The notes below the pieces were generated by a model. That model saw only the letters and a program-made list of their open reading frames with translations. It was not told where the DNA came from and did not search any database. This document shows positions 13,219 to 49,965 of a stretch of 52,698 nt of DNA, piece after piece (the stretch's first letter is position 1; each line of letters opens with the position of its first letter). This DNA comes from a virus (lineage: Duplodnaviria; Caudoviricetes): positions 1-52,698 of the IMG/VR virus record IMGVR_UViG_3300025102_000043. One strand, 5' to 3'. Both the position numbers and the translations under genes were made by a program.

Positions 13219-14478
13219 TTAAAGTTTTCCTATTGATGTTCTACCAAGGTTTCTTAATCTAAATTTTTGCTTTCCAGAAGGAACTCTAGGTTTATGTACA
13301 GCACCATGTTTAGCCATAGTCTTACCAAACTCTGCTTTAGATTCCTCTGTGTCCTCTGCCTCTCTATCCCATTTAGTTAATAGCCTATCCATTAGTTTAA
13401 CTAAAGACTTTCCATCATTATCTTTAATCATCCTTCTCATTTGTTTAACATTCTTAGGAGGCACAATAGCCTCTCCACCAGTCATTTCTCCTACTTTTTC
13501 TGGAGCTCCATTTTCTCCATTTTTCTGAACTAAATCAATAGGGTTTGATTCATGAGAAAATTTACCTGGGGTTACCTCTGGCTCTCCAGCTTCCATCATG
13601 TCTTTTGGCATACCACCTTTAGTAAACTTTTTCATTTTATCTTTAAGTTTACCACCACTAATTTTACCTAGCTTAACATCTAGTTTGCCATAATTAACAC
13701 CTAAAGTGTTCTTTCCTATTTTCCTAACAGCACCTCCATGCTTTGTTCCTACAAGGTCCTGTGCTATAACCCCCTTATACCTACCAGGACCCTTTGGAGC
13801 GTCTTCAGCATCTTTATACTCAAACTCACTAACCTGTACACCATCTTTGGTTTTTCCAACCTTCTTGATGTTCTTTTTTTCTTTTCTATCTGACAACGCA
13901 CTAGCTATAGTACCAATACCAGCATCTATAGCTCCATATTGTTGTTGTTGATAAGAAGCTAAATTTTGTTGACCTGCCATAACATCTTCTCTAGCGTAAT
14001 CAGCTAATTGAGCCTGTCTAGCATAATCAGCTTGCTCTCTAGCCTCTTGAGTGTTTCTAAGTTGTCCTCTCTCAGCTACACCAGCTTTTAAGCCTTGTCT
14101 TTGGGCAGTAGCTTGTTCAGTCGCTAGTTTTGACTCTTGTGCTTGACCTGCTCTGGCAGCAGCAAATGGGTCAACTCTAGAACCACCTCTAGTAGCAGCA
14201 GCCATAGCACCTGCTCTAGACCTTTCAGCAGCCTCTTGTCTTCTGTTTATTTCTGAACCACCAAGACCCTCTTTCATTTTCTCAATCTCAGGAGACATTG
14301 TTAATTTTTGTCTACTGTTTCTGAGCTCTTCTTCTTTAGCTAATTGAGCTTGTCTATCAGCTTCTGCTTTAGCTATATCTTTTTTAGATTGTTTAGCTCC
14401 TTTTATACCAGAGATTAAACCACCAATAAAGTATTTAGCAGCGTGTAATCCTTTTAATTTTTTCTTCTTTTTAGCCAT
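13219..14478 (-). CDS. Internal virion/ejection protein with an internal peptidase S74 (intramolecular chaperone) domain
   Basis: Ala/Gln-rich coiled coil; SDRKEKKNI...FEYK...GVIAQDL...VNY; C-terminal SHE...EMTGGEAI module. Confidence 0.7.
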   Translation of the reverse strand: MAKKKKKLKGLHAAKYFIGGLISGIKGAKQSKKDIAKAEADRQAQLAKEEELRNSRQKLTMSPEIEKMKEGLGGSEINRRQEAAERSRAGAMAAATRGGSRVDPFAAARAGQAQESKLATEQATAQRQGLKAGVAERGQLRNTQEAREQADYARQAQLADYAREDVMAGQQNLASYQQQQYGAIDAGIGTIASALSDRKEKKNIKKVGKTKDGVQVSEFEYKDAEDAPKGPGRYKGVIAQDLVGTKHGGAVRKIGKNTLGVNYGKLDVKLGKISGGKLKDKMKKFTKGGMPKDMMEAGEPEVTPGKFSHESNPIDLVQKNGENGAPEKVGEMTGGEAIVPPKNVKQMRRMIKDNDGKSLVKLMDRLLTKWDREAEDTEESKAEFGKTMAKHGAVHKPRVPSGKQKFRLRNLGRTSIGKL

Positions 14479-14505: not shown

Positions 14506-17500
14506 TTATTTATTACTAAGTTCACTGTTAATTGTATTTGCATTTACAGCAAACATGTTCATCTTATCTTTAGTTCTTTTTGTTAAGGTTGTGTCCATAT
14601 AGTGACCCTTTAATCTATCTCCTTCTATAGTAGAATTTCTTTTTACAAACATAAAAGTATTTGCTAAAGTAGCTGTAGCATTAGAAGCTAATGTAATCAT
14701 TCTATCTTCATCAATAGTATCTATTACCCCAATTAGTGTTTCAGTTCCAATATTATCATAATAAATTAAATCACCAACACTAATTCCTGCAGTCGTAAAT
14801 GTTGTGTTAGTTGTTGTTCCTTGAACCACTCCACCAACAAGAGCAGACCATGTGGTGCTTCCAAAAATCTCTTCATTACCATTGTTTGAAGAAACATGAC
14901 CTAAACCAATATATTCTCCACCTGATGTATTTGTTTCTCCAAATGGAATATTAGAAGATAAAATTTCCTCTCTTTCTACCCAATTACCTGGAAATAAATT
15001 TCCAGCCTCATCATTTCTATAAGACAGCCTGTGAGTTAAACTAGTTGTATTTATATTTGTTTCTAGTTTAGTTTCGTAAGCTGTATTATCAGCAGATATT
15101 ACAAATAAATTATTAAGTGCAGCTCCAGAAGCTGTTGAACTAGCTGTAATAAAAGCATTAACTTCACCAATAGATGTATTCATATTGGTTCCATTTGTTA
15201 TTGCAGTTATAACCCCAAGAGTTATGAGTGTTCCTTCATCATTATAAAATACAGAGTCTCCAACCATAAAATCATTGTTCTGGAAATCTGTATTAACCCC
15301 AACTAAAGTAGCACTACCAGAAGTTGCTGTAACAGTTGCAGGCTCACCATTTGAATTAGTAGATATTATAGGAATAGATTCTTTTTTAGAAGAACCTTCT
15401 ATTGATAAAACATTCCATGTTTTAACTGTAGAAACATCATTGTTAAATGGAGTAGATATTACAGATTCTTCAGGGTATGGGTTATCATAAAACATATTAT
15501 GATTATCAGGGTCTGAATCATGTTTATATAAGTCTCCATTTTTAAAGCTTATAAAAACTCTATTTAAAGTTCCATAATATTCAGGGTAGAATGTATAAAA
15601 ACTAGTCCACCTATTAGAACTTTCATTAAATGCTAATGTTTGTGGTGATGATGTTAACACATATTCTCTTCCATTGATTTGTTGCTCAGGTCTATCATCC
15701 TCTTCTGGAGTAAACTTATCAATGTCTCTTATTTTTGTTTTAACAGAACGTGTAGCTTTTCTATTTTCAAAGTTTACAGATTCTGCATTAAAATTATTAT
15801 TATTAGTATTAAAGAATGCCATTCTTTGTGGTTTGGTTGTGCTCTTTTCTGTACTATATATACCTGGGAAAGTTACTAAGTAATCACCATGCCTCCTATC
15901 ATACCCACCTAATATAAATAAACCCCCACCTAATTTTTCTTGATACTCAGAAAGTAGTATAGATTGATACTGGTCCATTTTATCTCTAAAGAAATCTTTC
16001 ATTTTATAATCAGACACAACTGTTAATCCATTGCCACCTAATCTTAAAACAGCTCCTTTTCTTATGTCTGTAAAGTATATAGTTTTTTCATGAACAGCTA
16101 CTGACTCTGGGTTTAAAGAAACGCCAAAGTCTCCACCAAAAGGAGTAGCAGTTTGAGGTAAAACATTATTAGATAAAGATATTCCCTCATCTCCTGATGG
16201 TGACGTTATTATAGATTTACTTACTAAAACTTCAGATATTTTCTTCTCTTGCATTAATACTAAATTAGTATCTCTGTTAACAAGTTTTTGAATAGAACCT
16301 AAAGATAGGTCATAGTCCATATATGGTCTTTGGCTAAAATTAAAAGAGTGTAATCCATTATATTGTGTATCTGGTTGGAATACATCAGAGTAAGTTAAAG
16401 TAGCTTCTCTTCTTTGTTCTTTTGCAAAAGTAGAATAAACGTGTGGTCTACCAATGTTACAATGATTAGTTTGCATAAAGTCATTTAAAAAGTAACTTTC
16501 ATATTGTTGACTTCCTAAGATTGCTACATTACCATCTTGGTCTAGTGATGTAAAAAACCTACTTTTCCACCAAACGTCTCCCCTTTTAAATATTCCTTCT
16601 GCAGGGGTGCTTAATGTTTTTTCATTAACATATACTTGACCTTGATTAGCCAAACCTCCCATATGAAATCTATTATCTGCACCAGGGTTTCCTATAAGGT
16701 GTCTTTCGCTAAATTCATGATAAAGAGTTAATTCTTCATTTAAATTTTTCTTAGGTCTATATATTTCAACTATAACTTTATGCCAGTTAGGTAAAACCCC
16801 ATCGCTATTTGCAGTTGATTTATCAAAGTCTGCTATATTTGGGTCAGCTATAATAATAAACTTACCTTCAATAGCGTCTTGAGTTGCGTTTCCACCAACA
16901 GGAGAATCTGAAACCTTTTTTGTTTCATCCATATTTGTCCCCCCTAATTCAAACCTTCCAGGAAAATGCCCAACATCACTAATTTTTAAATCAAAATATT
17001 TTTCAAATAAAGCATTAGCAAAATTAGCACCTTTAGTTATTAGTCTAACTCTATCTCCCTCAGCAAAGCTCCAGTCTCCAATTAAAGATTTATCTTTCTC
17101 ACTATAACTCCAATCTCTACCATCCATGGTATTTAAAGATATATAAAGTTTAGTGTCTGCTTCAGCTTCAGCTTGGGTTGTCCCAGCTTTTTTCCCCATA
17201 TTTATATATGCGTTATCAACAATAAATTGCATATACTTACCAACAGAAGTATTTCTCGCATACGCCCAATGATAATACTTAGCCCATATTGGTGGCTTAT
17301 GAAATATTTTCCAATATATACTTCCTGGATTTAATTTCTCTGGGTCAGTTAAAAGCTCTGTAGATATAGCACTAGGGTTGGTTGTAAGGAATTGTCCAGT
17401 AACTGGACCCATAGCATATTTTTTTTCATTTGGAAAATCTACATAGCATGATGAGTTTCTATCATATGTTGAATCACTAGAGTCTAAAGTGTTTAACATA

Positions 17501-27824: not shown

Positions 27825-30287
27825 TTATTTAAAAATATTTGGCATTGGATTATCTTCTTGTATTTGTGGTGGAGCAGTTGGTTCAGGTTCCAACTCTGTC
27901 AAAGGCAGAGCTCTATCTCTTTTTTGTTCCACTATTCTTGATTGATTATAAGCAGCTTTATCTTGAGAATCTAATTTTATTTTACCTGATACATTGGCTA
28001 CTTCTTTTTTACCAGAATTATTTAAAGCAATCTCCTTCATTCTTCTTTGATGATTCATGTCTTCTAATTGATTCTTTAACTTAAACTCTGATTCTAGTCT
28101 TTTTAATTCAGAAGAAGCTTGCATTTGTATTTTAGCTTGCTCTATCTGAGCCATCATTTGAGTTTCTTGCATTTTTAATTGAGACTGTTGCTCATTAGAC
28201 TGTCTTTGTATTTCTGAGTTCATTTTTTGTGCCTCTTTAGCCTTCTTGTCTTCCTCCTCTTGATATTTCTTTCTTCTAAACATTAATACCTGATTGGCTA
28301 GTTTAACATTTTTTATTCTTCTAATAGTTATAACATCCTCTAGTCTTATTTCTTTTTGTGCTAAAGACATTTGTAGGTTAGCTTCTAATTGGCTTTTCTC
28401 TTCTTCATTTGGAGCTACATCTAAGGTTACACCAAACTCATGTATTGATATATCTTTATTTACACCAAACATTGTAACAGCTGATTTACCCAGAGCGTTT
28501 GTATATGACTTTTTCTTAGATTTACTTTCTAAAACATCTTGTAGTCTCATAATAATACATTCTGAAACTCTTTTGGTTATACTTAAATAACCATCATTTA
28601 TATTTTTAGTAGCGTTGTTGGAAGCCATTATTTGTAGTTTTTGAACCCCCACTAAGGCTTCACTTGGAGGTTTAGCACCCTCTCTAGCTTCATTAACACC
28701 TGTAACATCTCTAATCATTTGTAGATTATGAGCATATATAGATATAAGTTTTTCCATGTCACTTCCTATACCATTATCTAACTCCTGTACAGGAACAGCA
28801 CCTGTTGGTGCACCATCATCTGTAATAGTTCTATAATATATATTACCAGTTTGGTCATATATTTCTTGTAATTCTAATGGTGTAAAAGAACCACCATCTC
28901 CCTTAGAAACATTCTCTAATGCCCCTAATTCAAATGCTGCACCTTTTGGTCTAGCTTTTGCTATAACCTGCTGAAGCTTTAAATGTGCTAATTGAATTTG
29001 GTCAGCAAATGGAATCATTCTTTCAACCATAGATTTATTAACCATCTTATGAGTACCAGGTGCATATACAACATATGATAATTTAGTCTCTGTAAGGTTA
29101 GACTTGTTTCTCATCATGTTTTTAGCTAAACCATAATTTATACAATAATCTGTTCCAACAATCCATTTACCAGAATAAACAACTTTAACAGAGTTTTTAA
29201 TTAACTCTCTTTCAAATTTAGATTTTTTTGGAGTTTTATAGGAGCCCTTCTTTTTAGTAACAGTATACCCACCATAAGCATTTTTCTTTTTTTCATACTT
29301 TAGTTCGTTTACAGATAAAAATTCTGCATCCATTATAGTTACCCTGTATTTGTCATATTCAAATTCATCCTGATACTCATTCATGTAAGATTCGTAATTT
29401 GGACTTATTTGGTCGTTATGATTTTTTCCTGCAAACTCTTGAGATATTTTTTCATAATCACTTTCAGACAACTGGTCTCCAGCTATTCTTTTTAATTCAC
29501 CTATAGTTATTGTGTAAACTTCTCCTGCATGTTGTATATCGCTGTAATCTTCATTGTTAGTGTAAGATGTAACTAGATTAGCAGGGTCTACATATTTTAT
29601 TTTTACACCAGTATTTGGGTCTATAGATGTTTTTGTAGCTCCAACACCACAAGTAACTAAATCCCTAATAACTGATTTTTTAATAGCATCATAATTATTA
29701 ATATCTAAAACAAATTTAATACCATTTTCTACAGCTATTTCTGTTGACTGTTTGTAATTAAGAGCCATATGTATATCTAACTCTTCTTGAGTTTCTGGTA
29801 TATACCCTTTCTTTTGAACATCATATCCAGTAGCTTTACTAAACTCTTTCATAGCAGGATGAACAAGCATTTTAGCAAATAAAGATTTCTTATCCCTCTC
29901 TCTTAATGTTTCTGATATTGGGTCTATTGCATTTGCTACAATCTCAAACTCTTGATTTGCCAAGTCATTAACTATAAGGTCTATAAATTTAGGTATTATA
30001 TTTACAGGAGTCCAATCAAGGTTTAAGTAAGATGTATCTCCTTGAGCATCTAATAAATCTTTGTACTTAGATACATTTTGAGAACCTTGAGCATAACTTC
30101 TAGACTTAACATATCTAGACCTTCTGCTATCAACTTTCATATCAGCATTATCTTTCCAGTCATAATACATTTTTTTAAAATATGCTAAACCATATTCTAG
30201 TTTTTCTTTTTGTTCTGGTGTTGCAAATGGACTTGGGTATCCACCTACTTTTTTAACTTTATCAAAACCATTTTTTTTAAATTCCAT
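27825..30287 (-). CDS. Portal protein
   Basis: 820 aa directly after TerL; LDWTPVNIIPKFIDLIVN, MIRDVTGVNEAREG, Gln-rich C-terminal coiled coil. Confidence 0.9.
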   Translation of the reverse strand: MEFKKNGFDKVKKVGGYPSPFATPEQKEKLEYGLAYFKKMYYDWKDNADMKVDSRRSRYVKSRSYAQGSQNVSKYKDLLDAQGDTSYLNLDWTPVNIIPKFIDLIVNDLANQEFEIVANAIDPISETLRERDKKSLFAKMLVHPAMKEFSKATGYDVQKKGYIPETQEELDIHMALNYKQSTEIAVENGIKFVLDINNYDAIKKSVIRDLVTCGVGATKTSIDPNTGVKIKYVDPANLVTSYTNNEDYSDIQHAGEVYTITIGELKRIAGDQLSESDYEKISQEFAGKNHNDQISPNYESYMNEYQDEFEYDKYRVTIMDAEFLSVNELKYEKKKNAYGGYTVTKKKGSYKTPKKSKFERELIKNSVKVVYSGKWIVGTDYCINYGLAKNMMRNKSNLTETKLSYVVYAPGTHKMVNKSMVERMIPFADQIQLAHLKLQQVIAKARPKGAAFELGALENVSKGDGGSFTPLELQEIYDQTGNIYYRTITDDGAPTGAVPVQELDNGIGSDMEKLISIYAHNLQMIRDVTGVNEAREGAKPPSEALVGVQKLQIMASNNATKNINDGYLSITKRVSECIIMRLQDVLESKSKKKSYTNALGKSAVTMFGVNKDISIHEFGVTLDVAPNEEEKSQLEANLQMSLAQKEIRLEDVITIRRIKNVKLANQVLMFRRKKYQEEEDKKAKEAQKMNSEIQRQSNEQQSQLKMQETQMMAQIEQAKIQMQASSELKRLESEFKLKNQLEDMNHQRRMKEIALNNSGKKEVANVSGKIKLDSQDKAAYNQSRIVEQKRDRALPLTELEPEPTAPPQIQEDNPMPNIFK

Positions 30288-36975: not shown

Positions 36976-37368
36976 TTAATTAAATTTTGCTAACATTATT
37001 TTATCTATACTTTTTTGAACATCTTTTTTAGTTGCTTCCAACTCAAACATTATGTTCGCTTTAAATCTTTCCTTTTCCTCACCACTTTCAAATATAATTA
37101 CAGTGGGAATAGAAGTTACTTTATATTTTTCTTGCAAGTTAGGGTATTCTCCAATATTTACCCTATATTTTTCACAATCTCCTAATTTACTTAAATCTGC
37201 AAATTCATTACCACTATTCCATTCAACCCAAAATTCTACAGCAACAATATCTTTTGTTGTTTTTTCATTAAAGTTAGATGGCGTTAAAAACTCTTGACCA
37301 TTTATTTTTGCAACTGAAAATAAAACAATTAAGAATATTAACAATAATTTTAAATCTAAATATTTCAT
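36976..37368 (-). CDS. Secreted thioredoxin-fold protein lacking CxxC
   Basis: Signal peptide ending ING|Q; VAVEFWVEWN in place of FWAxWCxxC; KYKVTSIPTVIIFESGEEKERF. Confidence 0.75.
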   Translation of the reverse strand: MKYLDLKLLLIFLIVLFSVAKINGQEFLTPSNFNEKTTKDIVAVEFWVEWNSGNEFADLSKLGDCEKYRVNIGEYPNLQEKYKVTSIPTVIIFESGEEKERFKANIMFELEATKKDVQKSIDKIMLAKFN

Positions 37369-37653
37369 TTAATTCATTTTATCTATTTTATCTCTGAGGT
37401 ATTTCATGTCCTCTTTTATTTCATTAACATCTTCTTGCGTTGTTAATATAGTTTGACGTATCATTTCGTCTTTCATTTTAAATTCCATTTTAGTAACTTC
37501 TGGTGGGGGTGCTATTGGAAGTTCTTTTGCTTCAGCTATATCAGCTTGCAGTGTAAACCACATACCTACAAAAGCAAAAATTAAAACTGCTAAACCACCA
37601 AGTGATTTTAAACTTACCTCAAATTTAGATTCTTCTGATATTTCTTTTGCCAT
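37369..37653 (-). CDS. Single-pass membrane protein with C-terminal coiled coil; start probably ATG 37653
   Basis: LGGLAVLIFAFVGMWFTL transmembrane segment, then heptad-like EDVNEIKEDMKYLRDKIDKM. Confidence 0.7.
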   Translation of the reverse strand: MAKEISEESKFEVSLKSLGGLAVLIFAFVGMWFTLQADIAEAKELPIAPPPEVTKMEFKMKDEMIRQTILTTQEDVNEIKEDMKYLRDKIDKMN

Positions 37654-37657
37654 TGTT

Positions 37658-39451
37658 TTAGATTTTTCTACCCATATTATAATTGCCACTCTTAGCTCTT
37701 TTCTTTAAAGCAGGTTTTGTTGCAGGAGCTACCTTCTTAGCCATATCATGAACTGATAATGCAGCACCCACATAACCTAATCTTTTAAGAAGTGCTTTAC
37801 CTCCTTTTTTTGCTAATATTCTAGCTATTTGGGTTTTAGTCAACTTCTTAGTTCCTCCTTTTAAAGGTTGCTTTATTTTTTTAAACTTTGCATCTCTTTC
37901 TTCCATTTTTTTTAGGTATTCTTTCATACCATCACTCATTTCTCTAGCCATTGGAGTTCCTCCATCTTTATATGGTCTTTTCATAAAGTTTGTTCCTCCA
38001 CCTGGGTACTTACTTACTTTTCCACCATCTTTATATGGTCTTTTCATAAAATTAGTTCCTCCTCCTGGATACTTTTTCATAACGCCTCCTTTTTTATAAT
38101 TTTTCATAACTCCTCCTTTTTTATACATTCCTGAATTGCTTGCAGCCTTATCTGCTTTTTGCTCTTTTCTTATTCCTTTACCTTCCTTACCTTGGTCAAA
38201 AGCTCTATCTGATTTTCTTTCTTTTCTAGCAGCTTTTCTTTCTTGTCTATTTACGTAAGCTCTATCTGAAGATTCCATATTCATACTGTCTCCATGCATA
38301 GCCATTCCACCCATATTATATTCTCTAACAGGCTCATTCGTTCTGGATTTTTTAAACTTATCGTAATTTTTTAAATTCATATTACCTCTTGGAGAAGATA
38401 TTCCAAGTTTATCTTTTAGATTTCTATACCATCTTCTAGGAGAAATCATTCTTCCACCAGTGTATCTAAAACCTCTATCTTCTCTGCTTTGTTGTCTAGC
38501 TTTTCTTCGCATTGTTCTTCTATACTGTCTAGACTCTTTTCTGTATTTTTTACGTGCTTCTCTTTTTCTTTTTCTCTCTAGTCTATCTTCCATTCTTTTC
38601 TGCCTTCTAGCTTCTCTTTCGTCAAATCTTTCGTCTTTAGTTTTTTTAACTTTAATAGTTTTATTTGATTCTTCTGTTGGGTTTTTGTCTTTATTGTTGT
38701 TTTTATTTCTATTAATATCTTTGTCTCTTACTACTTGTGGTGTGTCAGAACCTTTATTGTAATTACCTTCACCATCTTCTTCATCCATTTCTATTGGATT
38801 TATTTCATCACCATTTACACCACCTTCATTATATTTTCTTTTTATAAAGTTTGTCCCTCCTCCTGGATATTTTTTTACCTTTCCTCCACCTTTATATGAT
38901 GATTCTTTTTTAGGCTTCATATTAGTATTAACCTCCTCAGTTAATACTTTTTTATAACTTGGGCTATCTTCAAAATCTGACACTTCACCCCAATATGTAA
39001 ACGACTTATAAGCTTTGCTATTTTTAGCATCTTTATATGCTTTTGAGTTTATCATTTCATCATAACTCATAAAATTAGCACCTGGCTTTTTAGACTTATC
39101 ATCGTCAGTTACCCCACCAAGAGCATACATTTTTTTATCTTTTTTGGCTTTTTGTTTTGGTTTATTTGGTGTTGAATCTGATACTTTATCATCTAAACCC
39201 CCTGTTGCATCATTAGCTAATTCACCTTCTTTTTCTTGGTCTTCTTTTATTTTAGTAGAATAAACATTCCTTTTTTCTAATAAGTTAAACTGTTTTGGTC
39301 TAAACTTAAAAGTCTCTTCTCCTGCAGCACGTTTTTTCTTAAACTTTTTATTAAACCTTTTTCTGGTTCTACTTTCTTTTTTTGGAGTTGTTGTTGCGTC
39401 TGTTGTTGTTGGTGTTTTTCCACCTTTTACATATTTATCTAACATTTTCAT
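37658..39451 (-). CDS. Basic, disordered protein with 12 YxxGG motifs (probable virion cargo/polyprotein)
   Basis: YVKGG, YALGG, YKGGG, YPGGG x3, YNEGG, YNMGG, YKKGG x2, YKDGG x2; K/R-rich. Confidence 0.75.
   Translation of the reverse strand: MKMLDKYVKGGKTPTTTDATTTPKKESRTRKRFNKKFKKKRAAGEETFKFRPKQFNLLEKRNVYSTKIKEDQEKEGELANDATGGLDDKVSDSTPNKPKQKAKKDKKMYALGGVTDDDKSKKPGANFMSYDEMINSKAYKDAKNSKAYKSFTYWGEVSDFEDSPSYKKVLTEEVNTNMKPKKESSYKGGGKVKKYPGGGTNFIKRKYNEGGVNGDEINPIEMDEEDGEGNYNKGSDTPQVVRDKDINRNKNNNKDKNPTEESNKTIKVKKTKDERFDEREARRQKRMEDRLERKRKREARKKYRKESRQYRRTMRRKARQQSREDRGFRYTGGRMISPRRWYRNLKDKLGISSPRGNMNLKNYDKFKKSRTNEPVREYNMGGMAMHGDSMNMESSDRAYVNRQERKAARKERKSDRAFDQGKEGKGIRKEQKADKAASNSGMYKKGGVMKNYKKGGVMKKYPGGGTNFMKRPYKDGGKVSKYPGGGTNFMKRPYKDGGTPMAREMSDGMKEYLKKMEERDAKFKKIKQPLKGGTKKLTKTQIARILAKKGGKALLKRLGYVGAALSVHDMAKKVAPATKPALKKRAKSGNYNMGRKI
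37962..38075 (-). repeat. 63-bp-period tandem duplication encoding KYPGGGTNFMKRPYKDGG
   Basis: Two near-identical copies, plus a third diverged copy near 38822-38875. Confidence 0.8.
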
Positions 39452-39454
39452 ATT

Positions 39455-41761
39455 TTATCTTTTTTTTCTATTAGCCTTAGGTCTTCCAATAGCTATTATA
39501 ATTGCCATTTTATTTTTACCATTTTTCATTTTTCCTTTATTTGCCTTAACCATCATGCCTTTTTTTGCTTTACTTTCTCTAAGTGCTTTAGCAGTTGGTG
39601 CTCCTTTACTACCAGGTTTTCTCATTTTTTCTCCAGAGCCTGCAGCAATTCTTTTTTTCTTAGCATGAATATTATGCCAAAGACCTTTTCTTTTTGCTAT
39701 ACCACCCTTTCTCATATCGTTACTAAATGCGTCTCGTAAGTTGTCATCATATTGGGAGTTTTTCTCTGCCTCTTTTATTCTTTCACTCTCTTGCGTTGTT
39801 TCTTTTGCTTTTTGCATATCTTTCTCAACTTGGTTTTTGTGAGTTATATTAAAAGACTTTACATTACCATTTTCATCATAATATTTAAACGCTTTAGTGC
39901 CACCTCCTCCATCTGATTGTGCCCAGGAATCAGCAAATGCCATAGCTCTATCGTAACTACTATAAACACTTCCTCCATCTTTATATTTATTAACCATCAT
40001 ACCCTTCTTAGCAAATCTATTTCCACCTGCTTCTTTATATAGCTCTTCAGCACCTTCAGGAACTTCTCCTGTTTGCTTGTATTGCCTATACATTTTCATA
40101 GCATCTTTTTTCTGACCCTTAGAAGCACCTCTATATAGGTTTTTAGCGTAGCTCATATCATCTTTACTAGCACCCATTGCTTTACCCTCTTTTCTAATTG
40201 CTCTTACTCCACCATGCATGTATTTAGTGACTCCTCCTTTTTTCATTTTACCCATCATAGGTCTTGTGGTTTTTTGCTTTACCTCTTCAGAATCTTTTTT
40301 TCTATCAGCTCTATCTTGAGCATCTTGTTTCTTTTCGTCTGCTATAGCTTTATCATAATCCTTTTGACTTTTGTTTTGTTTATCCCTAGTTTCTTCCATG
40401 TATATATCCCTAACACTTTCATTACTTTTCTTATTCATGGCAAGACTTATTCTCTCCTTTCTTTTTAATTCTTTTTCCATCTCAGGAGTCCATTTACCCT
40501 CTTTCTCTAGTCTTAATTTTTTTTGTCTTTCAATATTTAAACCTCTATCTAACATTCCATAATCAGTCATAGCCTTATATGGAGAACCACCACTAGTTGG
40601 GCTGTCTTCATAAAACTGATATTCTGACACAGGTTTTTGTTCTCTTTTTTGAACAAATCTATTATATCTAGTTTTTAATTTATCTTTGGATTTTTGAAGC
40701 CAGTTTCTTTTACTTTCCTTTTGAGGAGGTATTCCACCATTGTTATATTTTTTCATACTTTTTCTTTTATTAACAACCATTCCTTTTTTGGCAGTAACTT
40801 CGTCTGCTACATCGCCTAATTTATCACCAAGACCTTCTGTAGCGTCACTTAATGTATCACCAAGACCTTCTGTTGCCTCAGATAAACCTTCTCCTGCACT
40901 TGATAATGCATCACCTGCTGAATCTGCTATATTTGAGCTAGCATCTGACAAGCCTTCTCCCATATTAGAAGTTGCATCACCTAAAGCGTTGCCAGCACCC
41001 TGCATTGATTGAGGAGTCATATTTCTAGACTCGTGACTATAGTTTCCTTCTGCTCTACCAATATTAGGATTTTCTCCTTCACCAAAAGTTGATTGAGGAA
41101 TATACTCATCACCTGGATTTACTGTCTGTGGAGTTATGTCTGTATCCATATTTTGCCTGGATATTGTTTGAGGAGTAGCATCTGTATCTATATCTTTTCT
41201 AGATATTGTTTGAGGAGTATAATCTTCGTCTCCACCTCCAGTGTCATTGCCCCCAGTATCACCATCACCATCACCATCACCATCACCATCTCCATTTCCA
41301 TTTCCATCACCATCACCATCACCATCTCCATTTCCATCACCATCACCATCACCATCACCATCTCCATCTCCATTTCCATTTTCATCTAACTCTTCCCTTG
41401 GGTCTTTATCTACTAAGATTTCATCATCTGTATTGTTATTCTCTTCTATTACACTTGAATCGTCTTCACTACCTTTATTCTTATTCTTATTTTTGTTTTT
41501 GGTCTTATTCTTGTTTTTGTTTCCACCACCCAAGTCTATAGCTTCTGCCTGATGAAATTGAGTTCCACCTCCACCTCCACCTGAAGGAGCTTGTTTTTCG
41601 TAGAATCGTACACCACCACCTTCAGCATAGTTTGGTATAGACATGCCTGCTTTGTTATCTTCAGTATATATTATTGGTAAATCGTTTTTCTTAGCATATG
41701 CTTTTGCATCTGCTAAACCCTTGTCAGTGTATGGGAATTTCTTTTTTCCTACTCTTGGCAT
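39455..41761 (-). CDS. Modular low-complexity protein with [YM]xxGG and AKKGM motifs (probable virion cargo/polyprotein)
   Basis: YAEGG, YNNGG, MKKGG, YMHGG, YKDGG, MRKGG, AKKGM x3; GD tract; 14-aa and 11-aa repeats. Confidence 0.75.
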   Translation of the reverse strand: MPRVGKKKFPYTDKGLADAKAYAKKNDLPIIYTEDNKAGMSIPNYAEGGGVRFYEKQAPSGGGGGGTQFHQAEAIDLGGGNKNKNKTKNKNKNKNKGSEDDSSVIEENNNTDDEILVDKDPREELDENGNGDGDGDGDGDGDGNGDGDGDGDGNGNGDGDGDGDGDGDTGGNDTGGGDEDYTPQTISRKDIDTDATPQTISRQNMDTDITPQTVNPGDEYIPQSTFGEGENPNIGRAEGNYSHESRNMTPQSMQGAGNALGDATSNMGEGLSDASSNIADSAGDALSSAGEGLSEATEGLGDTLSDATEGLGDKLGDVADEVTAKKGMVVNKRKSMKKYNNGGIPPQKESKRNWLQKSKDKLKTRYNRFVQKREQKPVSEYQFYEDSPTSGGSPYKAMTDYGMLDRGLNIERQKKLRLEKEGKWTPEMEKELKRKERISLAMNKKSNESVRDIYMEETRDKQNKSQKDYDKAIADEKKQDAQDRADRKKDSEEVKQKTTRPMMGKMKKGGVTKYMHGGVRAIRKEGKAMGASKDDMSYAKNLYRGASKGQKKDAMKMYRQYKQTGEVPEGAEELYKEAGGNRFAKKGMMVNKYKDGGSVYSSYDRAMAFADSWAQSDGGGGTKAFKYYDENGNVKSFNITHKNQVEKDMQKAKETTQESERIKEAEKNSQYDDNLRDAFSNDMRKGGIAKRKGLWHNIHAKKKRIAAGSGEKMRKPGSKGAPTAKALRESKAKKGMMVKANKGKMKNGKNKMAIIIAIGRPKANRKKR
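41258..41380 (-). repeat. Hexamer microsatellite encoding (Gly-Asp/Asn)n
   Basis: About 20 ACCATC/TCCATT-type units. Confidence 0.95.
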
Positions 41762-45206: not shown

Positions 45207-46235
45207 ATGAAAAGAATAATAATACTGTTACTAATGGTAAACATTTGTGCACAAGCACAAATCCAAGATTTTTTTAAATACTCAACTGTATATACATCAA
45301 TGACAATGAACACATCTTTTATTGAAAGAGATGATTATATAGCTGTGCAAAAAGGATATGAGGATGTAACACAAGTTAATCCTTATGATTATAATTTAAC
45401 AATAGGTTTAAGAAAAATAGCAAGATTTGATTATGAGTACAAGGTTAAGACATGGTATTATGGCACTGAAAAAGGTGTTGCAGACAATGTTACTATTGGT
45501 AACGCTGTTGGTTGGGAGTATTTATTTAATTATTCATTTATACGTAATCGTGGGGATAAGTATACTGAACAAAATTACTGGATTAGATACTTGGGAAATT
45601 GGTGTGTTACCAAAGTCCAATACAAAGACAATCAAAGAGTAGATTTAAGATATAACTCTTTTGATACTAGATTTAGATTAGCTAAAGGTAATTGGGATTT
45701 AACTTTAGGTGGTGTATTTAGAATGCATAACCCATATGGAATTAGCCCTATAGAAGATTTTTGGACACCAGGAGAACAGTCTTTTAAACAACTAGCTGAA
45801 TCCTTTGGTTATAGTACAGAGTTTGTTAATGGTGATTGGCACTGGTTTAACGATGGAGAGTTAATAGCTACATCTGATGACGAGTTCTATAAACATTATT
45901 TTGGAAATGCAGTTGCATCATATAATGAAAGAGAATTAGAAAAACTTGGTATGCAAAAACAGTTGAGTGCTGTCATAGGTGTAGCATATTATAAGTATAC
46001 AGATAGAATGTGGTTACATACGTGGATTAATTGTATGCCTTTTCATTATGGTTTAGATGATTATTCTTTTGAATATGGTATAGAAGATTATGATAATATA
46101 GAGTGGGACGCTGGTATTGTTCTTGGTTCTCGTATAACTAAGCATTTAGGTTTATTTATAGAAGGAACACACATGCGTTATTGGATGAAACCAGTATATG
46201 AAGTGAAGTTTGGTTTTAATTATTTAATATTTTAA
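45207..46235 (+). CDS. Probable outer-membrane beta-barrel protein
   Basis: Signal peptide AQA|Q; aromatic-rich amphipathic strands; C-terminal YEVKFGFNYLIF with terminal Phe. Confidence 0.7.
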   Translation: MKRIIILLLMVNICAQAQIQDFFKYSTVYTSMTMNTSFIERDDYIAVQKGYEDVTQVNPYDYNLTIGLRKIARFDYEYKVKTWYYGTEKGVADNVTIGNAVGWEYLFNYSFIRNRGDKYTEQNYWIRYLGNWCVTKVQYKDNQRVDLRYNSFDTRFRLAKGNWDLTLGGVFRMHNPYGISPIEDFWTPGEQSFKQLAESFGYSTEFVNGDWHWFNDGELIATSDDEFYKHYFGNAVASYNERELEKLGMQKQLSAVIGVAYYKYTDRMWLHTWINCMPFHYGLDDYSFEYGIEDYDNIEWDAGIVLGSRITKHLGLFIEGTHMRYWMKPVYEVKFGFNYLIF

Positions 46236-46237
46236 TT

Positions 46238-46882
46238 ATGAGAAAAAGTATTTTTATTTTATTTGTATTGTTAAGTTGGTTTTGTAAAGGTCAGGGTTAT
46301 GATTTTCAACAATTATGTTTAGACTGTGCCACTCAGGGTGGTTATTATTGTGGAGACGACCCAGCTAATTGGACTCAATATGCTCCTGATGGATGTGTTC
46401 AGACAGCATGGTTAAATGATTCATGGGAAGATTGTGTAGACGCAGGTGATGAGAATGGAGCTGTTCCAACTACTCCATTAGATTGTGCTCCTGATGAAAT
46501 TCCTTGCGATACTATTTTTGTAGATATTCCTGTAATTGAATATGAATACATATACGAAACAGACACAATTATTCAAATTGAAACAGTAATAGAAGTAGAA
46601 TATACGTATATTACAGATACAGTAACAGTTTATGAAGATGTATTAGACACTATGTTTATAGATGTTATAGAATATGTTGAGATATTTGTTATTGATACAA
46701 TAGTAGAATTTGAAACAGAATATTTAGATTGTGAAACAGGTATGCCATGTAATACTTCTATTCCTGAAATATTAGAAAAATCAGAAAATGATGGTCGTAT
46801 GTATAACATTCTAGGTCAACCAATACAAAGACCAGAAAGTATATACATACACGATGGTAAACTTAAATACATATTAAACTAA
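46238..46882 (+). CDS. Secreted Cys-rich protein with LDLa-like motif and T9SS CTD-like tail
   Basis: Signal peptide CKG|Q; CVQTAWLNDSWEDCVDAGDE; DT[IVM] repeats; C-terminal YNILGQPIQRPESIYIHDGK. Confidence 0.65.
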   Translation: MRKSIFILFVLLSWFCKGQGYDFQQLCLDCATQGGYYCGDDPANWTQYAPDGCVQTAWLNDSWEDCVDAGDENGAVPTTPLDCAPDEIPCDTIFVDIPVIEYEYIYETDTIIQIETVIEVEYTYITDTVTVYEDVLDTMFIDVIEYVEIFVIDTIVEFETEYLDCETGMPCNTSIPEILEKSENDGRMYNILGQPIQRPESIYIHDGKLKYILN

Positions 46883-47241
46883 TGTATACTTATAAAGCAA
46901 AGTTAGATAGAGTTGTTGATGGAGATACTATAGATGTAAATATAGACCTAGGTTTTGATATATCAGTTCATAAGAGAGTTAGATTAGCAGGTATAGATAC
47001 TCCTGAGAGTAGAACTAGAGACTTAGAGGAAAAAAAACGTGGCTTAGCTGCTAAGGATAGATTAATAGAAATACTTGATAAAGGTGATTTACAGGTAGAA
47101 AGTAAAGAGGTTGGTAAATATGGTAGAGTTTTAGGTGTATTAACTATATATCCTGACAATCTAGGTTTACCAATTAATGTTAACGACACATTGGTGAGTG
47201 AAGGTCATGCAGTTGAGTATAATGGTGGTAAAAAGAAATAA
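46882..47241 (+). CDS. Thermonuclease (SNase-like) protein
   Basis: RVVDGDTID...RVRLAGIDTPE...GKYGRVLG...LVSEGHAV.Y. Confidence 0.9.
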   Translation: MYTYKAKLDRVVDGDTIDVNIDLGFDISVHKRVRLAGIDTPESRTRDLEEKKRGLAAKDRLIEILDKGDLQVESKEVGKYGRVLGVLTIYPDNLGLPINVNDTLVSEGHAVEYNGGKKK

Positions 47242-47243
47242 TT

Positions 47244-47465
47244 ATGAATATATTTAGAAATGATAATAATTGGAATGAGAAAGCTATAATAGGTTTTGTA
47301 GCATTTCTTATTATGTGTTTAATAATGGTTGCTGATTTAGTAACAGGATGGGTTGGAAAAGACCTCATCATCAATAAATTCGTTTACGACAGTTTTGTTT
47401 GGGTTGTGCTTGGATGTTTTGGAATCAGTGGTGTAGAAAAATTTGCAGGTAATGGCAAAAAGTAG
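47244..47465 (+). CDS. Two-TM small membrane protein, holin-like
   Basis: Two hydrophobic segments and a basic C-terminus. Confidence 0.6.
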   Translation: MNIFRNDNNWNEKAIIGFVAFLIMCLIMVADLVTGWVGKDLIINKFVYDSFVWVVLGCFGISGVEKFAGNGKK

Positions 47466-49965
47466 AAAGTATATATCTAAAAAAAGAACCAGAAAGTTTT
47501 TCCTTGGTGGTTTAATGAAAAAAATGGCTAGTGCCAATCCATTGGCAATGGGTATTAAAGCTTTAAGAAAGAAAAAAGATGGTGGAGAAGGAGCTGAGGG
47601 GGAAGAGGTTTCTCAAAATAACGATGGAAAAATATTAAAAGTAAAAGTTCTAGGAGAAGGTGGTGGAGAGAATAAGTCTCAACTCTCAAAAGAGGCAAAG
47701 AAAGCTAAAATGGACGCTATGGCAGGTTCTTTAGGAGGAATGTCTAAACCTGGTTTTAATATAGGAATAATGAGAAAAGGTGGTGTTGTTAAAAAATCAT
47801 CAAATAAAGATAAGGATAGAAAATTTGTAATTTTAAACACCCAAGAAGAGATAGATAAAATAAATAAAGATGCAGCAGGCTTCCTGCCAGGAAAAAAAAC
47901 AAATCTTCCTGGATTTGATAAATATAATGCAAGAACTCATAAAAAAAAGAAAAAATACAAGGATGGTGGTAAAGTTTCTGATGCAAGTGATGTTAATTTA
48001 CATAGCAATAAAGGAAATACTGATGAGGGAGCTAAACTAAAGAAAGAAGAAGAAAAAAGAAAAATCCAAGAAAACGACTCTGAAAAACTTAAAAATCTTG
48101 GTAAATCCACAATTAGAGATGAGGCTATTGTTAGAGGAGGACAAGCGTTAGCTAGAAGAGCAGGAGCTACTGGAGTTAATAGGGCTTTAGGTGCTTTTGG
48201 ACCTATAGGAGCTATGGCTGGAATTAGTTACGCTATGTATGATAATTATGATGAAGCTCATGAACAAGCTTTTGGTCCTAAATTAAGAGACTTAGAAAAA
48301 ACCCATGGAAAAGAAACAAGAAAAAAGGTAGAGCAAACAACTCACACTTTTGGTGGACATGGAGCTACAGGATTTGGTCAAGGTTATAAATCAAAAATGG
48401 AAAAAGGTGGTATTATGAAAAAAAGAAAACATGTAAATAGCAATGTTGGAAGAACATTAGAATATCAAATGCTTGATGGTGCAGGAGCACTTTATGATAA
48501 AAAGTCTACAGGAAAAGTTAAAAGACTTTTAAATGAGAAAGAAAAATCTCTATATAGACAAGCAGGTAGAAAACTGCCTAAGAAAAATATATTTAATGAA
48601 GGTGGGGAAGTTTTAAATGAAATGAACGATAAAGAGGGTTACAACCAATGGAAAACAGATAGGTCTACAAGAACTAGAACAAATATATCTCCTTTAGTTT
48701 CAAGAAAACAACATCTTAATAAACATTATGAAGATAATGTAGACCCAGACTCTAAGGGGGCAGATAGAAAAAGTGAATTTGTAGAAAGAAAAAACCAAGG
48801 AACTTGGAATCAAGGTTATGGTAATCAAGATTTGATGATAGAAGCTAAAGAGGGTAGAGGAGATATAAAAAGAAGAGGTTTAGCTAGAGGATTATTTAAT
48901 AGAAAAACTGAGAAAGGTCTTGTTAAGAAAAAATACGATGACGAACTATCTAAAGACAGTGAAGTTATATCAGGAGCTAGAGCATCTAAATTTGGTTTAG
49001 GAGACTATAAAGAAGAAAAGGCAGCTGGTAGAGAGCAGAGAAAATACATTACTTCAGGTGAAGATAGTGATGGAGACCCTATAAAAACAAAAATAAAAAC
49101 AAAGGGTATAAGAGGTAGAGATATACCAACTGAGATGAATAAGGAGAAAATGATTAATGAGAATGAGAGAAAGTTTGTTGATGTTGTAGATGGTAAAAGG
49201 GTAAAGAAAAGAGGCGCTACTGCAAGCACTGCTAGAGAGTATAAAAGAAGAGGTTTAAGGAGAGTTTATACTGACCCAGATGCTGAAGGAAATGTTCAAT
49301 ATGTAGGAACTGGTGAAAGGGCAACACGAAGAGCTGATAGAGAAAGTGGCAGGGATGAGAGAAACCAAAGAAGACAAGAAAATAAAGCAATTAGACAACA
49401 AAAACAACAAGATAGAAAAGCTACAAGAAAACAAAATAGACAAGATTTTAGACAGTCTTTTGGTGGTGACCCAGGAAGCTCTTATTCTTCTGGTTCTAAT
49501 TATGGTGATTACGAGGAAGGTGGAGTTGCATTTAACAAGCCTAAAAGAACCCCAAACCATCCAAAAAAATCACATATAGTAGTTGTTAGAAAACCAGGAG
49601 GTGGTAAGAAAACAATTAGATTTGGTCAACAAGGTGTGACCACTGCTGGTAAACCAAAAGAAGGTGAATCACAAAAACAAAAAAACAGAAGAAAATCTTT
49701 CAAGGCTAGGCATGGTAAAAATATAGCAAAAGGAAAAATGTCTGCAGCCTACTGGGCTAATAAAGTTAAATGGGAAGATGGTGGAGTAAACGCACCTAAA
49801 GGTCTTCACTGGATGAAGAAAGGAGAAGGAAAATACAAACTAATGAAGCATGGCGATAAGCCATTTAAGAAACATGCAGGTGCTAGTTTAAAAGCTAAGT
49901 TTCCTATTCAAAAGAAACACAATCCTAAACAAGACGCTAGAATGGCTAAAAGAAAATACGTGTAA
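47452..49965 (+). CDS. Basic modular protein with 7 [YFMW]xxGG motifs (probable virion cargo/polyprotein); start probably ATG 47452
   Basis: FFLGG, MRKGG, YKDGG, MEKGG, FNEGG, YEEGG, WEDGG; the last modules resemble stand-alone small phage proteins. Confidence 0.75.
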   Translation: MAKSRKYISKKRTRKFFLGGLMKKMASANPLAMGIKALRKKKDGGEGAEGEEVSQNNDGKILKVKVLGEGGGENKSQLSKEAKKAKMDAMAGSLGGMSKPGFNIGIMRKGGVVKKSSNKDKDRKFVILNTQEEIDKINKDAAGFLPGKKTNLPGFDKYNARTHKKKKKYKDGGKVSDASDVNLHSNKGNTDEGAKLKKEEEKRKIQENDSEKLKNLGKSTIRDEAIVRGGQALARRAGATGVNRALGAFGPIGAMAGISYAMYDNYDEAHEQAFGPKLRDLEKTHGKETRKKVEQTTHTFGGHGATGFGQGYKSKMEKGGIMKKRKHVNSNVGRTLEYQMLDGAGALYDKKSTGKVKRLLNEKEKSLYRQAGRKLPKKNIFNEGGEVLNEMNDKEGYNQWKTDRSTRTRTNISPLVSRKQHLNKHYEDNVDPDSKGADRKSEFVERKNQGTWNQGYGNQDLMIEAKEGRGDIKRRGLARGLFNRKTEKGLVKKKYDDELSKDSEVISGARASKFGLGDYKEEKAAGREQRKYITSGEDSDGDPIKTKIKTKGIRGRDIPTEMNKEKMINENERKFVDVVDGKRVKKRGATASTAREYKRRGLRRVYTDPDAEGNVQYVGTGERATRRADRESGRDERNQRRQENKAIRQQKQQDRKATRKQNRQDFRQSFGGDPGSSYSSGSNYGDYEEGGVAFNKPKRTPNHPKKSHIVVVRKPGGGKKTIRFGQQGVTTAGKPKEGESQKQKNRRKSFKARHGKNIAKGKMSAAYWANKVKWEDGGVNAPKGLHWMKKGEGKYKLMKHGDKPFKKHAGASLKAKFPIQKKHNPKQDARMAKRKYV

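Follow-up and report, generated by a model that had tools for sequence, protein, structure and literature searches.

The window analysed here, the whole 52,698-nucleotide stretch of IMG/VR record IMGVR_UViG_3300025102_000043, comes from a marine flavobacterial-type phage. Three of its genes encode long basic proteins (P0001 to P0003) that are punctuated by the motif [YFMW]xxGG, and a fourth (P0004) carries the motif twice. The features are:

13219..14478, minus strand: P0004, 419 aa, 2 motifs (residues 16, 285), marginal
37658..39451, minus strand: P0001, 597 aa, 27% K+R, 12 motifs (residues 7, 109, 186, 195, 207, 378, 443, 452, 461, 473, 482, 494)
37959..38125, minus strand: tandem motif-to-motif array, P0001 residues 443-498
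39455..41761, minus strand: P0002, 768 aa, 6 motifs (residues 45, 339, 506, 514, 593, 683)
39572..39700, minus strand: phrog_16028 module of P0002, residues 688-730
47443..49965, plus strand: P0003, 840 aa, 7 motifs (residues 19, 110, 172, 319, 384, 690, 777)
49525..49785, plus strand: phrog_7595 module of P0003, residues 695-781
49786..49965, plus strand: terminal module of P0003, residues 782-840, ending ...KRKYV before the stop

The likely true start of P0003 is the ATG at 47452, because relatives start MAK[SN]RKYI. The genes for P0001 and P0002 lie upstream of the terminase gene, and that for P0003 is on the opposite strand. The head module runs in the order portal, acidic scaffold-like protein, SU10-type capsid protein. 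P0004 matches phrog_6121 'virion structural protein', has a Peptidase_S74 domain of the self-cleaving chaperone type at residues 196-242, and is encoded directly downstream of a muzzle-protein homologue (Pfam crAss_MUZ). It is the only one of the four whose gene lies directly after the muzzle gene and before that of a giant virion protein.

Is the motif simply a product of composition? The counts reported by the sequence-only reading for these four proteins were all reproduced. In 2000 composition-preserving shuffles per protein, 0.65, 1.2, 1.0 and 0.39 motifs were expected in P0001, P0002, P0003 and P0004, and the observed counts were reached in 0, 0.05%, 0.05% and 5.4% of shuffles, respectively. 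The remaining 34 ORFs of the window have 0-3 motifs each, none significant by shuffling (lowest p 0.067); a 608-aa protein with 2 motifs is among the non-significant cases. A second test was conditional on GG and counted only the first GG of each G-run. An aromatic residue or Met stands three residues ahead of GG at 8 of 16 sites in P0001 (p 2.6e-4), 6 of 13 in P0002 (p 7.5e-4) and 7 of 14 in P0003 (p 7.4e-5), and at 8 of 80 sites in the 34 other ORFs pooled, which is the background level (0.12). P0004 is not convincing by itself (2/7, p 0.085). Under the first-GG count every motif has its own context (8/8, 6/6 and 7/7 in P0001, P0002 and P0003). Because the enrichment persists among existing GG sites, the motif is not accounted for by G/K composition, which had been named among the findings that would overturn the idea.

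The spacing of the motif is specific. Across 385 distinct GG contexts, Y, F, M or W stands exactly three residues before GG in 163, compared with 20, 36, 68 and 33 at neighbouring offsets, and Tyr is enriched 7.8-fold at this position. The context first described as usual, basic-basic-aromatic-x-x-G-G, is found in its strict form in only 6 of 25 motifs, but 18 of 25 have at least one K or R among the two residues ahead of the motif. GG is followed by V, I, L or M in 14 of 25, and the conserved joint element can be written [KR]-[YFMW]-x-x-G-G-[V/I/K/T]. The Gly codons of the motif are a mix of GGT and GGA, the same as elsewhere, which points to selection on the peptide and on neither DNA nor RNA. 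With hmmscan at E <= 1, P0001 to P0004 match no Pfam repeat family; we take the KGG stress repeat to be an example of such a glycine-rich family.

AlphaFold predicts disorder over most of P0001 and, with confidence, a single long helix at residues 272-325. The pLDDT is below 50 for 335 of its 597 residues, and all 12 motifs lie in such stretches. The suggestion that whole motif-to-motif units have been duplicated in tandem is borne out in the P0001 gene by a 63-nt unit repeated 2.2 times (37959-38098; two motifs per unit) and a 27-nt unit repeated 2.1 times (38069-38125; one motif per unit). Array copy number differs between P0001 homologues. The motif itself is conserved. It is enriched in 20 of the 20 P0001 relatives listed, including the window's own protein; in 1000 shuffles each, the observed count was never reached in 19 of them and was reached 4 times in the remaining one. 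The motif is kept across homologues of 31-83% identity, and when 15 homologues are aligned, 7 of the 12 P0001 motifs keep their columns in 8-13 of them, with variable x-x residues and flanking sequence. P0002-type proteins have 3-6 motifs in 10 of 10 cases.

What lies between the motifs? P0001 and P0003 match no Pfam family, and P0002 gives sub-threshold Pfam matches only. We found that the between-motif segments are modules that many marine phages encode separately, as ORFs of 50-100 aa, an observation that is new here. The modules include phrog_7595, phrog_16028, phrog_33179, DUF5872 and DUF6321, which are found as free-standing 40-100-aa ORFs in very many marine phages; the only Pfam matches of the modules in relatives are DUF5872 and DUF6321. 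In P0003, the phrog_7595 module lies between an N-side Y-E-E-G-G and a C-side W-E-D-G-G, and among the matches listed it shares 72-88% identity with solo proteins of about 96 aa. It scored E <= 1e-3 for 7963 of 8000 scored shorter candidates and was found by tblastn in phages of cyanobacteria, Roseobacter-group bacteria and Vibrio; phrog_7595 is extremely abundant among metagenomic proteins. P0002 has an N-terminal module matching phrog_33179, DG hexanucleotide and TPQ-type repeats, three AKKGM variants of the motif (residues 324, 584, 732) and a conserved C-terminal end (...AIIIAIGRPK...RKKR). Its phrog_16028 module follows M-R-K-G-G and precedes an AKKGM variant. The same module forms a 50-aa ORF of its own in Roseobacter phage CRP-5, stands alone also in cyanophages and pelagiphages, and is embedded in other lineages in larger proteins with 0-1 motifs.

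The joint appears where a module is followed by another. We surveyed 114 ends of the commonest module in 121 proteins. The protein stops at ...KW at 99 ends and one residue later at 2; xxGG and another module, of three different kinds, follow 8; and the remaining 5 continue into further sequence without GG. In all 8 cases in which a module of this lineage follows, the joint on the commonest module reads W-E-x-G-G. The terminal module of P0003 behaves likewise, reading KRK[YF]V[KS]GG where it is internal in relatives. Since modules ending natively in ...KW and in ...KRKYV both show it, the aromatic-x-x-G-G spacing is kept regardless of the module's native end. Free C-terminal modules lack xxGG even in multi-module proteins of this lineage (e.g., P0028, P0029, P0035 and P0036). 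Fusion without a joint is tolerated elsewhere, as shown by the 5 ends without GG and by phrog_16028 embedded in motif-poor proteins. Relatives with a terminase about 86% identical encode the same material in three genes instead of two, or in two to three instead of one, and their modules are split, fused and reordered. The proposal that the motifs punctuate otherwise unrelated basic segments is therefore strengthened, because the segments exist as solo ORFs and the xxGG extension is present only where a module follows. We conclude that P0001 to P0003 are lineage-specific, highly basic, largely disordered chains of micro-proteins, like beads on a string. The motif is very probably their separator: it lies in disordered linkers, is added when something follows, and is kept through splits, fusions and reordering. 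Proteins of this type are absent from the cultured relatives examined, including phi38:1, whose record has structural proteins annotated.

A close architectural parallel is with polyvalent proteins, in which domains that are also found solo are strung together in one polypeptide, encoded near virion genes, proposed to be co-delivered and sometimes processed (PMC5512222). The chains described here share with them the combination of several domains that also occur as solo proteins. In that account, the domains combined are recognisable as enzymatic or conflict-related, a metallopeptidase is often embedded among them, and no fixed joint motif is described; the words 'linker' and 'glycine' do not occur in that text (Iyer et al. 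2017, PMC5512222). By contrast, the present chains consist of basic 40-100-aa DUF and PHROG modules without assigned function, have no embedded peptidase, and use a fixed joint motif.

Are the joints cut? The reading that we favour, though only tentatively, is that the chains are polyprotein-like and the joints are sites of proteolytic processing. The P0001 to P0003 genes would then encode precursors from which small basic proteins and peptides are set free, perhaps to be packaged in the capsid, perhaps to act in the infected cell; the joint would be a recognition site for an endoproteolytic cut after or near GG, and the cutting enzyme could come from the host, or from the phage if it is so divergent that searches miss it. 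Cutting the tandem arrays would give 8-12-residue peptides, which would be meaningful only if such peptides are products. This reading is favoured by the enrichment beyond composition and GG content, the conservation, the offset specificity, the disorder, the solo modules elsewhere, the separator rule, the splitting and reordering of genes, and the selection at the peptide level. The shape of the motif also fits protease sites as a class, which typically have conserved non-prime residues, two terminal small residues, little constraint on the prime side and a disordered setting.

The processing reading invites comparison with the adenovirus core-protein precursors, African swine fever virus (ASFV) polyproteins and polyubiquitin or ubiquitin-like precursors, all cut after Gly-Gly. 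Adenovirus thereby releases basic DNA-associated products, and polyubiquitin is built of head-to-tail units with a short cap after the last GG. The likeness is a loose one. As in those precursors, two glycines end the element and a hydrophobic anchor lies upstream, and several proteins here have short tails after the last GG that resemble the polyubiquitin cap. However, known GG proteases read a hydrophobic residue at P4, with an aliphatic anchor, whereas the anchor here is at P5 and mainly Tyr; P4 of the 385 GG contexts is Y, F, M or W in only 68, with K and E the commonest residues. Terminal modules also lack GG, the setting is a tailed phage of a bacterial host, and the searches described below detected no cysteine protease of the CE clan or any other kind. 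A second comparison is with the internal proteins and scaffold core of T4 and the inner-body proteins of giant phages, which are basic or internal proteins, from which a prohead protease removes short N-terminal leaders and which it cuts at many short consensus sites as the head matures. The chains, too, are basic and carry a short consensus many times. Prohead-protease systems have a dedicated, recognisable enzyme and sites ending in Glu, whereas the portal, acidic scaffold-like and capsid genes here are laid out without a protease gene that we could find, and no gene occupies the usual protease slot of the head module.

Consistent with the original statement that no dedicated protease is recognisable in the window, Pfam searches of 34 of the 38 ORFs gave no peptidase beyond Peptidase_S74 in P0004 and the cell-wall type Peptidase_M15_3 in a 3250-aa protein; the other four ORFs are a portal, a terminase, an endonuclease and an anti-restriction protein by PHROGs. 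The idea that a CE-clan or other protease might be encoded beyond the window was not supported: a 96%-complete relative has no peptidase among the 10 largest ORFs of its extra 9 kb, and Peptidase_C48 (PF02902) is absent from 5 of 5 related records, in profile searches of a kind that could miss very divergent enzymes. The failure to find a protease, the empty protease slot, the aromatic at P5, the very short peptides expected from the tandem arrays, the tolerance elsewhere of fusion without a joint and the absence of such proteins from the cultured relatives examined all count against processing.

Alternatively, the chains may remain whole and act as polycations, condensing or binding nucleic acid, either phage DNA within the head or host RNA or ribosomes, without any specific reader of the joint. 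Gly-Gly would then provide flexibility between modules, and the aromatic and basic residues would serve as cohesive or nucleic-acid-contacting stickers. The K+R content of P0001 to P0003 (18-27%), the disorder of P0001, the expansion of low-complexity linkers by slippage and the failure to find a reader are in keeping with this, and modules 72-88% identical across very many metagenomic proteins and varied phage hosts fit a universal ligand such as nucleic acid. A passive linker, however, needs neither exact aromatic-x-x-G-G spacing irrespective of how the preceding module natively ends nor conserved motif positions amid varying linker sequence, and the absence of the joint at free ends is unexplained unless the joint is purely a linker. 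We consider an uncleaved hinge or sticker rather unlikely.

Less likely still is multivalent docking, in which the motif would bind a virion pocket (capsid interior, portal or scaffold) and load the basic proteins into the procapsid, with repeats adding avidity. Repeated shell-binding motifs are known from cargo or scaffold proteins of icosahedral shells, namely carboxysome CsoS2 and the cargo-loading domains of encapsulin cargo. Like these, the chains, known here from sequence, are basic, disordered and repetitive with many copies of a short motif, and the variable copy number of their arrays suits avidity. Moreover, most P0001-type genes, including extra gene pieces in the relatives L006 and L007, begin MK-x-LKK-[YF]-x-x-G-G, and a related form, K-[YF]-F-[LI]-G-G-L, lies near the N-terminus of P0004, at the position of the crassvirus cargo protein C1. 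Unlike CsoS2 and encapsulin cargo, however, the motif is missing where a module ends freely and also from the putative giant cargo protein; the 3250-aa protein, the likeliest to be packaged, has 0 motifs where 1.8 are expected. Many P0003-type genes also open straight with a module rather than with an N-terminal motif, and the absence of xxGG at 99 of 114 ends indicates that a tag does not travel with the module regardless of position. A universal capsid-addressing tag, as once envisaged, is thus unlikely. The atlas of crassvirus PhicrAss001 describes partly unfolded cargo (C1/C2) stored in the virion and has no word beginning 'cleav' or 'proteolytic' (PMC10172136). Compared by gene position, the present phage resembles crassviruses in its Bacteroidota-type host and in a muzzle homologue followed by putative cargo genes and a giant protein, but only P0004 is in a cargo-like position, unlike P0001 to P0003.

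That the motif count has no function and simply follows from a G/K-rich composition together with recent tandem duplication is highly improbable: two tandem arrays do supply part of the P0001 count and the two P0004 motifs are not significant, but the shuffling, the GG-conditional test, the distinct contexts and the conservation at 31-83% identity contradict it.

Why string micro-proteins together? Many eukaryotic viruses characteristically process polyproteins; in tailed phages, to our knowledge, processing is mainly head-protein trimming by a dedicated prohead protease. The concatenation of micro-proteins through one fixed joint would be a new logic of gene expression or cargo delivery in phages, whether the joint is cut or otherwise read. 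It also links the orphan families phrog_7595, phrog_16028, DUF5872 and DUF6321 into one functional set, whose shared membership suggests that they act together. It is possible, if on the doubtful side, that a lineage of marine tailed phages makes dozens of small basic modules and short cationic peptides as three chains cut at Tyr-x-x-Gly-Gly by an unrecognised, possibly host, protease. If so, this would be an expression strategy in the style of eukaryotic viruses in a bacteriophage, and might reflect adaptation to hosts where separate initiation on many tiny ORFs is difficult. It would also offer the first experimental handle on micro-proteins of the DUF6321/DUF5872 type, whose genes are some of the most widespread in marine phages.

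We show that in this phage independently viable modules are separated by the [YFMW]xxGG motif, which is conserved, position-specific, and disordered. The motif was examined in four proteins, two of which carry recognizable modules:

37658-39451, minus strand: P0001, 597 aa
39455-41761, minus strand: P0002, 768 aa; its residues 688-730 are a phrog_16028 module, which has matches among small free-standing ORFs of cyanophages, pelagiphages, and roseophages
47443-49965, plus strand: P0003, 840 aa
49525-49785, plus strand: phrog_7595 module of P0003, with small stand-alone matches to residues 697-777 in the same three phage groups
13219-14478, minus strand: P0004, 419 aa

The counts of the sequence-only reading are exact: 12 motifs in P0001, 6 in P0002 (plus three AKKGM sites), 7 in P0003, and 2 in P0004. 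Composition-preserving shuffles (n = 2000) gave expectations of 0.65, 1.2, 1.0, and 0.39, respectively, and reached the observed count in 0-0.05% of cases for P0001-P0003 and in 5.4% for P0004; the same test found no enrichment in the remaining 34 ORFs of the window. Among existing GG dipeptides, Y, F, M, or W stood three residues upstream at 8/16 in P0001, 6/13 in P0002, and 7/14 in P0003, as against 8/80 in the other ORFs and a background of 0.12. Because the enrichment survives both the shuffles and this conditioning, G and K composition fails as its explanation. The basic-basic-aromatic context that had been described as usual is true in its strict form of only 6 of the 25 motifs, although at least one basic residue occupies the two preceding positions in 18; the residue after GG is branched or hydrophobic in 14/25. 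We rejected an internal Shine-Dalgarno-like signal (GGAGG from Gly-Gly codons), as the Gly codons in motifs are mixed GGT/GGA, as they are elsewhere (first Gly: 18 GGT, 9 GGA). These codons are ordinary, and the constraint therefore acts on the peptide. The tandem duplications noted earlier show up at the DNA level as 63-nt and 27-nt periods. P0002 holds further repeats at 40817-41519 (minus strand). A 6-nt repeat present 19-21 times specifies runs of Asp-Gly/Asn-Gly, and there is also a run of Asn-Lys; a 42-nt unit gives a repeat of the [Y/A/I]-T-P-Q-T type, and a further unit measures 33 nt. Relatives share the x-[TI]-P-Q-[TS] repeat, which also appears, as S-D-T-P-Q-V-V, in the P0001 conserved core and may represent a second short linear motif.

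The motif is conserved in homologues. All 20 P0001-type proteins among the matches listed (one being the window's own) are enriched, with 4-12 motifs against 0.24-3.6 expected, and proteins with P0002-type ends have 3-6 motifs each in 10/10. In an alignment of 16 sequences (A1, P0001 with its homologues), 7 of the 12 P0001 motifs fall in the same columns in 8-13 of 15 homologues; the aromatic position alternates between Y, F, and M, the two middle residues vary freely, and G210 and G211 are invariant. When 385 distinct GG contexts were pooled from all relatives, Y/F/M/W occupied offset -3 in 163, compared with 20, 36, 68, and 33 at offsets -5, -4, -2, and -1, and Tyr was enriched 7.8-fold.

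The pattern does not extend to cultured or complete relatives. No enriched ORF was found in Cellulophaga phage phi38:1 (whole), the first 50,000 of 60,850 bp of ctfjg026, or the last 50,000 of 77,160 bp of Maribacter phage Panino, and in other lineages the phrog_16028 module is embedded in larger proteins with 0-1 motifs. The joint is thus a lineage-specific device rather than a property of the modules. Neither P0001, whether whole or as its conserved core, nor P0004 found a tblastn match among 50,697 phage records; IMG/VR scans with two back-translated joint or array patterns returned none for either, and the ESM Atlas returned only unnamed viral clusters for P0001, below a useful score. A scan of the genome collection for the start MK-x-LKKY-x-x-GG was also discarded: its 33 stretches were in no case P0001-like, and several were lipoprotein-type signal peptides or unrelated proteins.

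The separator rule emerges from the ends of the modules. We located 114 occurrences of the conserved end of the phrog_7595 module among 120 listed hits and P0003. The end, ...KW, is the protein C-terminus in 99/114 and is followed by one more residue in 2/114; in 8/114 it continues as W-E-[D/E/K]-G-G-[V/I]-N into another module, of which there are three different kinds, and in 5/114, apparently from other lineages, it runs on without GG. Four multi-module proteins of the same lineage in which this module comes last (P0028, P0029, P0035, and P0036) stop at ...KW with no extension. Similarly, P0003 ends in ...KRKYV, and internal copies of the same module in relatives read KRK[YF]V[KS]GG. Comparison of terminal with internal ends thus indicates that one or two residues are added, restoring aromatic-x-x-G-G. 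At the N-terminal flank of the phrog_7595 module, A-E-[EK]-G-A alternates with [YM]-[EK]-[EK]-G-G. Where P0002 has AKKGM, the aligned sites of relatives are canonical [YFM]-[KH]-[KH]-G-G.

Judged by homology, what lies between motifs is more than random filler. Roseobacter phage CRP-5 encodes the two modules separately, as 50-aa and 87-aa proteins whose genes lie two genes apart within a single small-ORF cluster; in Synechococcus phage S-H1 the homologue immediately precedes the scaffold and coat genes. Relatives carry the further modules DUF5872 and DUF6321. The phrog_7595 module dominates a search with P0003 among shorter proteins, in which 7963/8000 scored candidates had E <= 1e-3; those listed are mostly 93-98 aa and 72-88% identical. 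This micro-protein (~96 aa; P0038-P0144) is extraordinarily abundant and conserved, and tblastn places it in phages of cyanobacteria, Roseobacter-group bacteria, and Vibrio. Its predicted fold (mean pLDDT 67.8) consists of three strands and two helices; Foldseek found no PDB match at E <= 0.001, and the model hence gave no functional lead. The AlphaFold2 model of P0001, built with A1, has a mean pLDDT of 53, with 335/597 residues below 50, one confident long helix (272-325), and a few short ones. Every one of the 12 motifs falls where confidence is low, 11 of them entirely and one for 3/5 residues. P0004 has a Peptidase_S74 domain (an intramolecular chaperone, self-cleaving) mid-protein at residues 196-242, after an Ala/Gln-rich probable coiled coil; self-cleavage there, if it occurs, would give two halves. 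P0023, a distant P0001 relative, has a short stretch very like this region by eye, where Pfam does not report S74.

Gene boundaries are fluid among relatives. A related-locus search found nothing with a single protein as query and four IMG/VR loci with A1, one of them in a 59.5-kb, 96%-complete record (G002) collinear with the window. The P0002/P0001 pair corresponds to three genes in two relatives (372+308+378 aa and 421+308+259 aa), and in these two the P0003 material is divided between two or three genes with a different module order. P0001-type gene pieces mostly start MK-x-LKK-[YF]-x-x-G-G, the exception being the 308-aa piece of locus L007, and many P0003-type genes start directly with a module. 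Exchange of modules between the P0001 and P0002 families is seen as well, P0007 and P0019 being examples.

The window is a whole IMG/VR record (52,698 bp, 85% complete by CheckV, G+C ~32%), and its phage is, to judge from its genes, a podophage of the Flavobacteriia-infecting kind. Its setting comprises the following features, with several side observations:

27825-30287: portal; 87 phage records matched, every one at <60% identity (by organism name, Flavobacterium 68, Cellulophaga 15, Tenacibaculum 2, Maribacter 1, Caudoviricetes 1)
after the portal, minus strand: terminase, SU10-type capsid protein, and several "virion structural" PHROGs
14506-20484, minus strand: 1992-aa protein with a crassvirus muzzle-family domain
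1630-11382, minus strand: 3250-aa protein, Peptidase_M15_3 near its N-terminus as sole recognizable domain
34304-34285, minus strand: the one good terminator-like hairpin
365-817, minus strand: HNH endonuclease
46882-47241, plus strand: second endonuclease (phrog_452), directly upstream of P0003
51125-52054, plus strand: "anti-restriction protein" PHROG match, near the contig end
32632-33282, minus strand: 216-aa protein with a Cpn10 (GroES-like) domain at residues 126-211, its N-terminal half resembling a second such barrel
37369-37689, minus strand: ORF whose listed GTG start overlaps the P0001 end

P0001 and P0002 head the minus-strand unit that ends at the hairpin and includes a fibre-like 670-aa protein; P0003 belongs to a divergent unit. 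A sigma-70 promoter scan was uninformative (71 sites, 84 expected). A very acidic 394-aa protein encoded between the portal and capsid genes is presumably the scaffold. Past the muzzle-type protein come P0004, a 608-aa protein, and the 3250-aa protein with its cell-wall peptidase domain. This order is the same as that of PhicrAss001 (muzzle, cargo C1/C2, giant virion proteins; PMC10172136). The muzzle-family domain here sits in a phage with Cellulophaga/Flavobacterium-podophage-like head genes, and phi38:1, ctfjg026, and Panino carry no detectable counterpart of the 3250-aa protein. Cultured relatives encode both GroEL and Cpn10, and the window lacks GroEL. Signal-peptide-like N-termini, conserved in related contigs, occur on three proteins (36976-37368, minus; 45207-46235 and 46238-46882, plus): a thioredoxin-fold protein, an aromatic-rich 342-aa protein that ends in Phe and resembles an outer-membrane barrel, and a Cys-rich acidic 214-aa protein. 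For the 37369-37689 ORF, translation more likely begins at the ATG located 36 nt downstream, because the orthologue in the complete relative has 93 aa; the product has one transmembrane helix, then a coiled coil, and in this resembles a small protein of the CRP-5 micro-ORF cluster. The genome part missing from the window (locus L014, G002 50.4-59.5 kb) encodes a DnaB-type helicase, a DUF1064 protein, a PDDEXK (DUF3799) protein, and a DnaA-C-like HTH protein, with no DNA polymerase among the 10 ORFs scanned.

What is the joint for? We tentatively favor a processing site. Cleavage would account for the separator rule, for the short caps that precede the first GG and follow the last, and for the free reordering of modules and the equivalence of split and fused genes. 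The window has no recognizable dedicated protease, as the sequence-only reading had stated: Pfam scans of 34/38 ORFs found no protease family, and the other four have PHROG identities. Nor was a protease found among the 10 ORFs in the extra 9 kb of the complete relative, and Peptidase_C48 is absent from 5/5 records. A search for a protease embedded in the 3250-aa protein gave only irrelevant PDB hits (phmmer, E >= 0.03) and an endolysin-type PHROG match, with nothing protease-like by sequence. A phage may borrow a host protease for its head proteins, so the missing phage protease weakens the cleavage reading and does not remove it. Phylogenetic profiling for a reader gene left too many lineage-specific ORFs to be useful.

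An uncleaved hinge or sticker within a nucleic-acid-binding polycation is less likely, since a passive linker requires neither fixed spacing nor positional conservation, and both are observed. It is more doubtful still that the joint is a docking or address tag: such a tag should travel with each unit and mark other cargo, and the motif does neither, which speaks against capsid-cargo addressing, one of the two options of the sequence-only reading. Modelling the capsid protein (97-row alignment A3) in complex with P0001 436-505 scored 0.00, which gives no indication either way on binding. Residues after GG are not consistently hydrophobic, and for that reason we dropped two further readings, a chaperonin-binding-loop mimic and a chaperone-binding site. 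With the enrichment exceeding shuffled expectation, an artefact is very improbable.

Our literature search found no paper describing the [YFMW]xxGG motif in phages, nothing on phage polyprotein cleavage of internal virion proteins, and, among the papers listed, nothing pertinent on disordered or lysine-rich internal proteins. GG-directed processing, known in adenovirus, ASFV, and ubiquitin-like precursors, is the closest chemistry, and its defining features were found here only in part. The same is true of the closest concept, the polyvalent protein (PMC5512222). The feature is real, conserved, and unexplained. Joint-linked chains represent a new form of the polyprotein or polyvalent-protein theme, and one that is readily testable.
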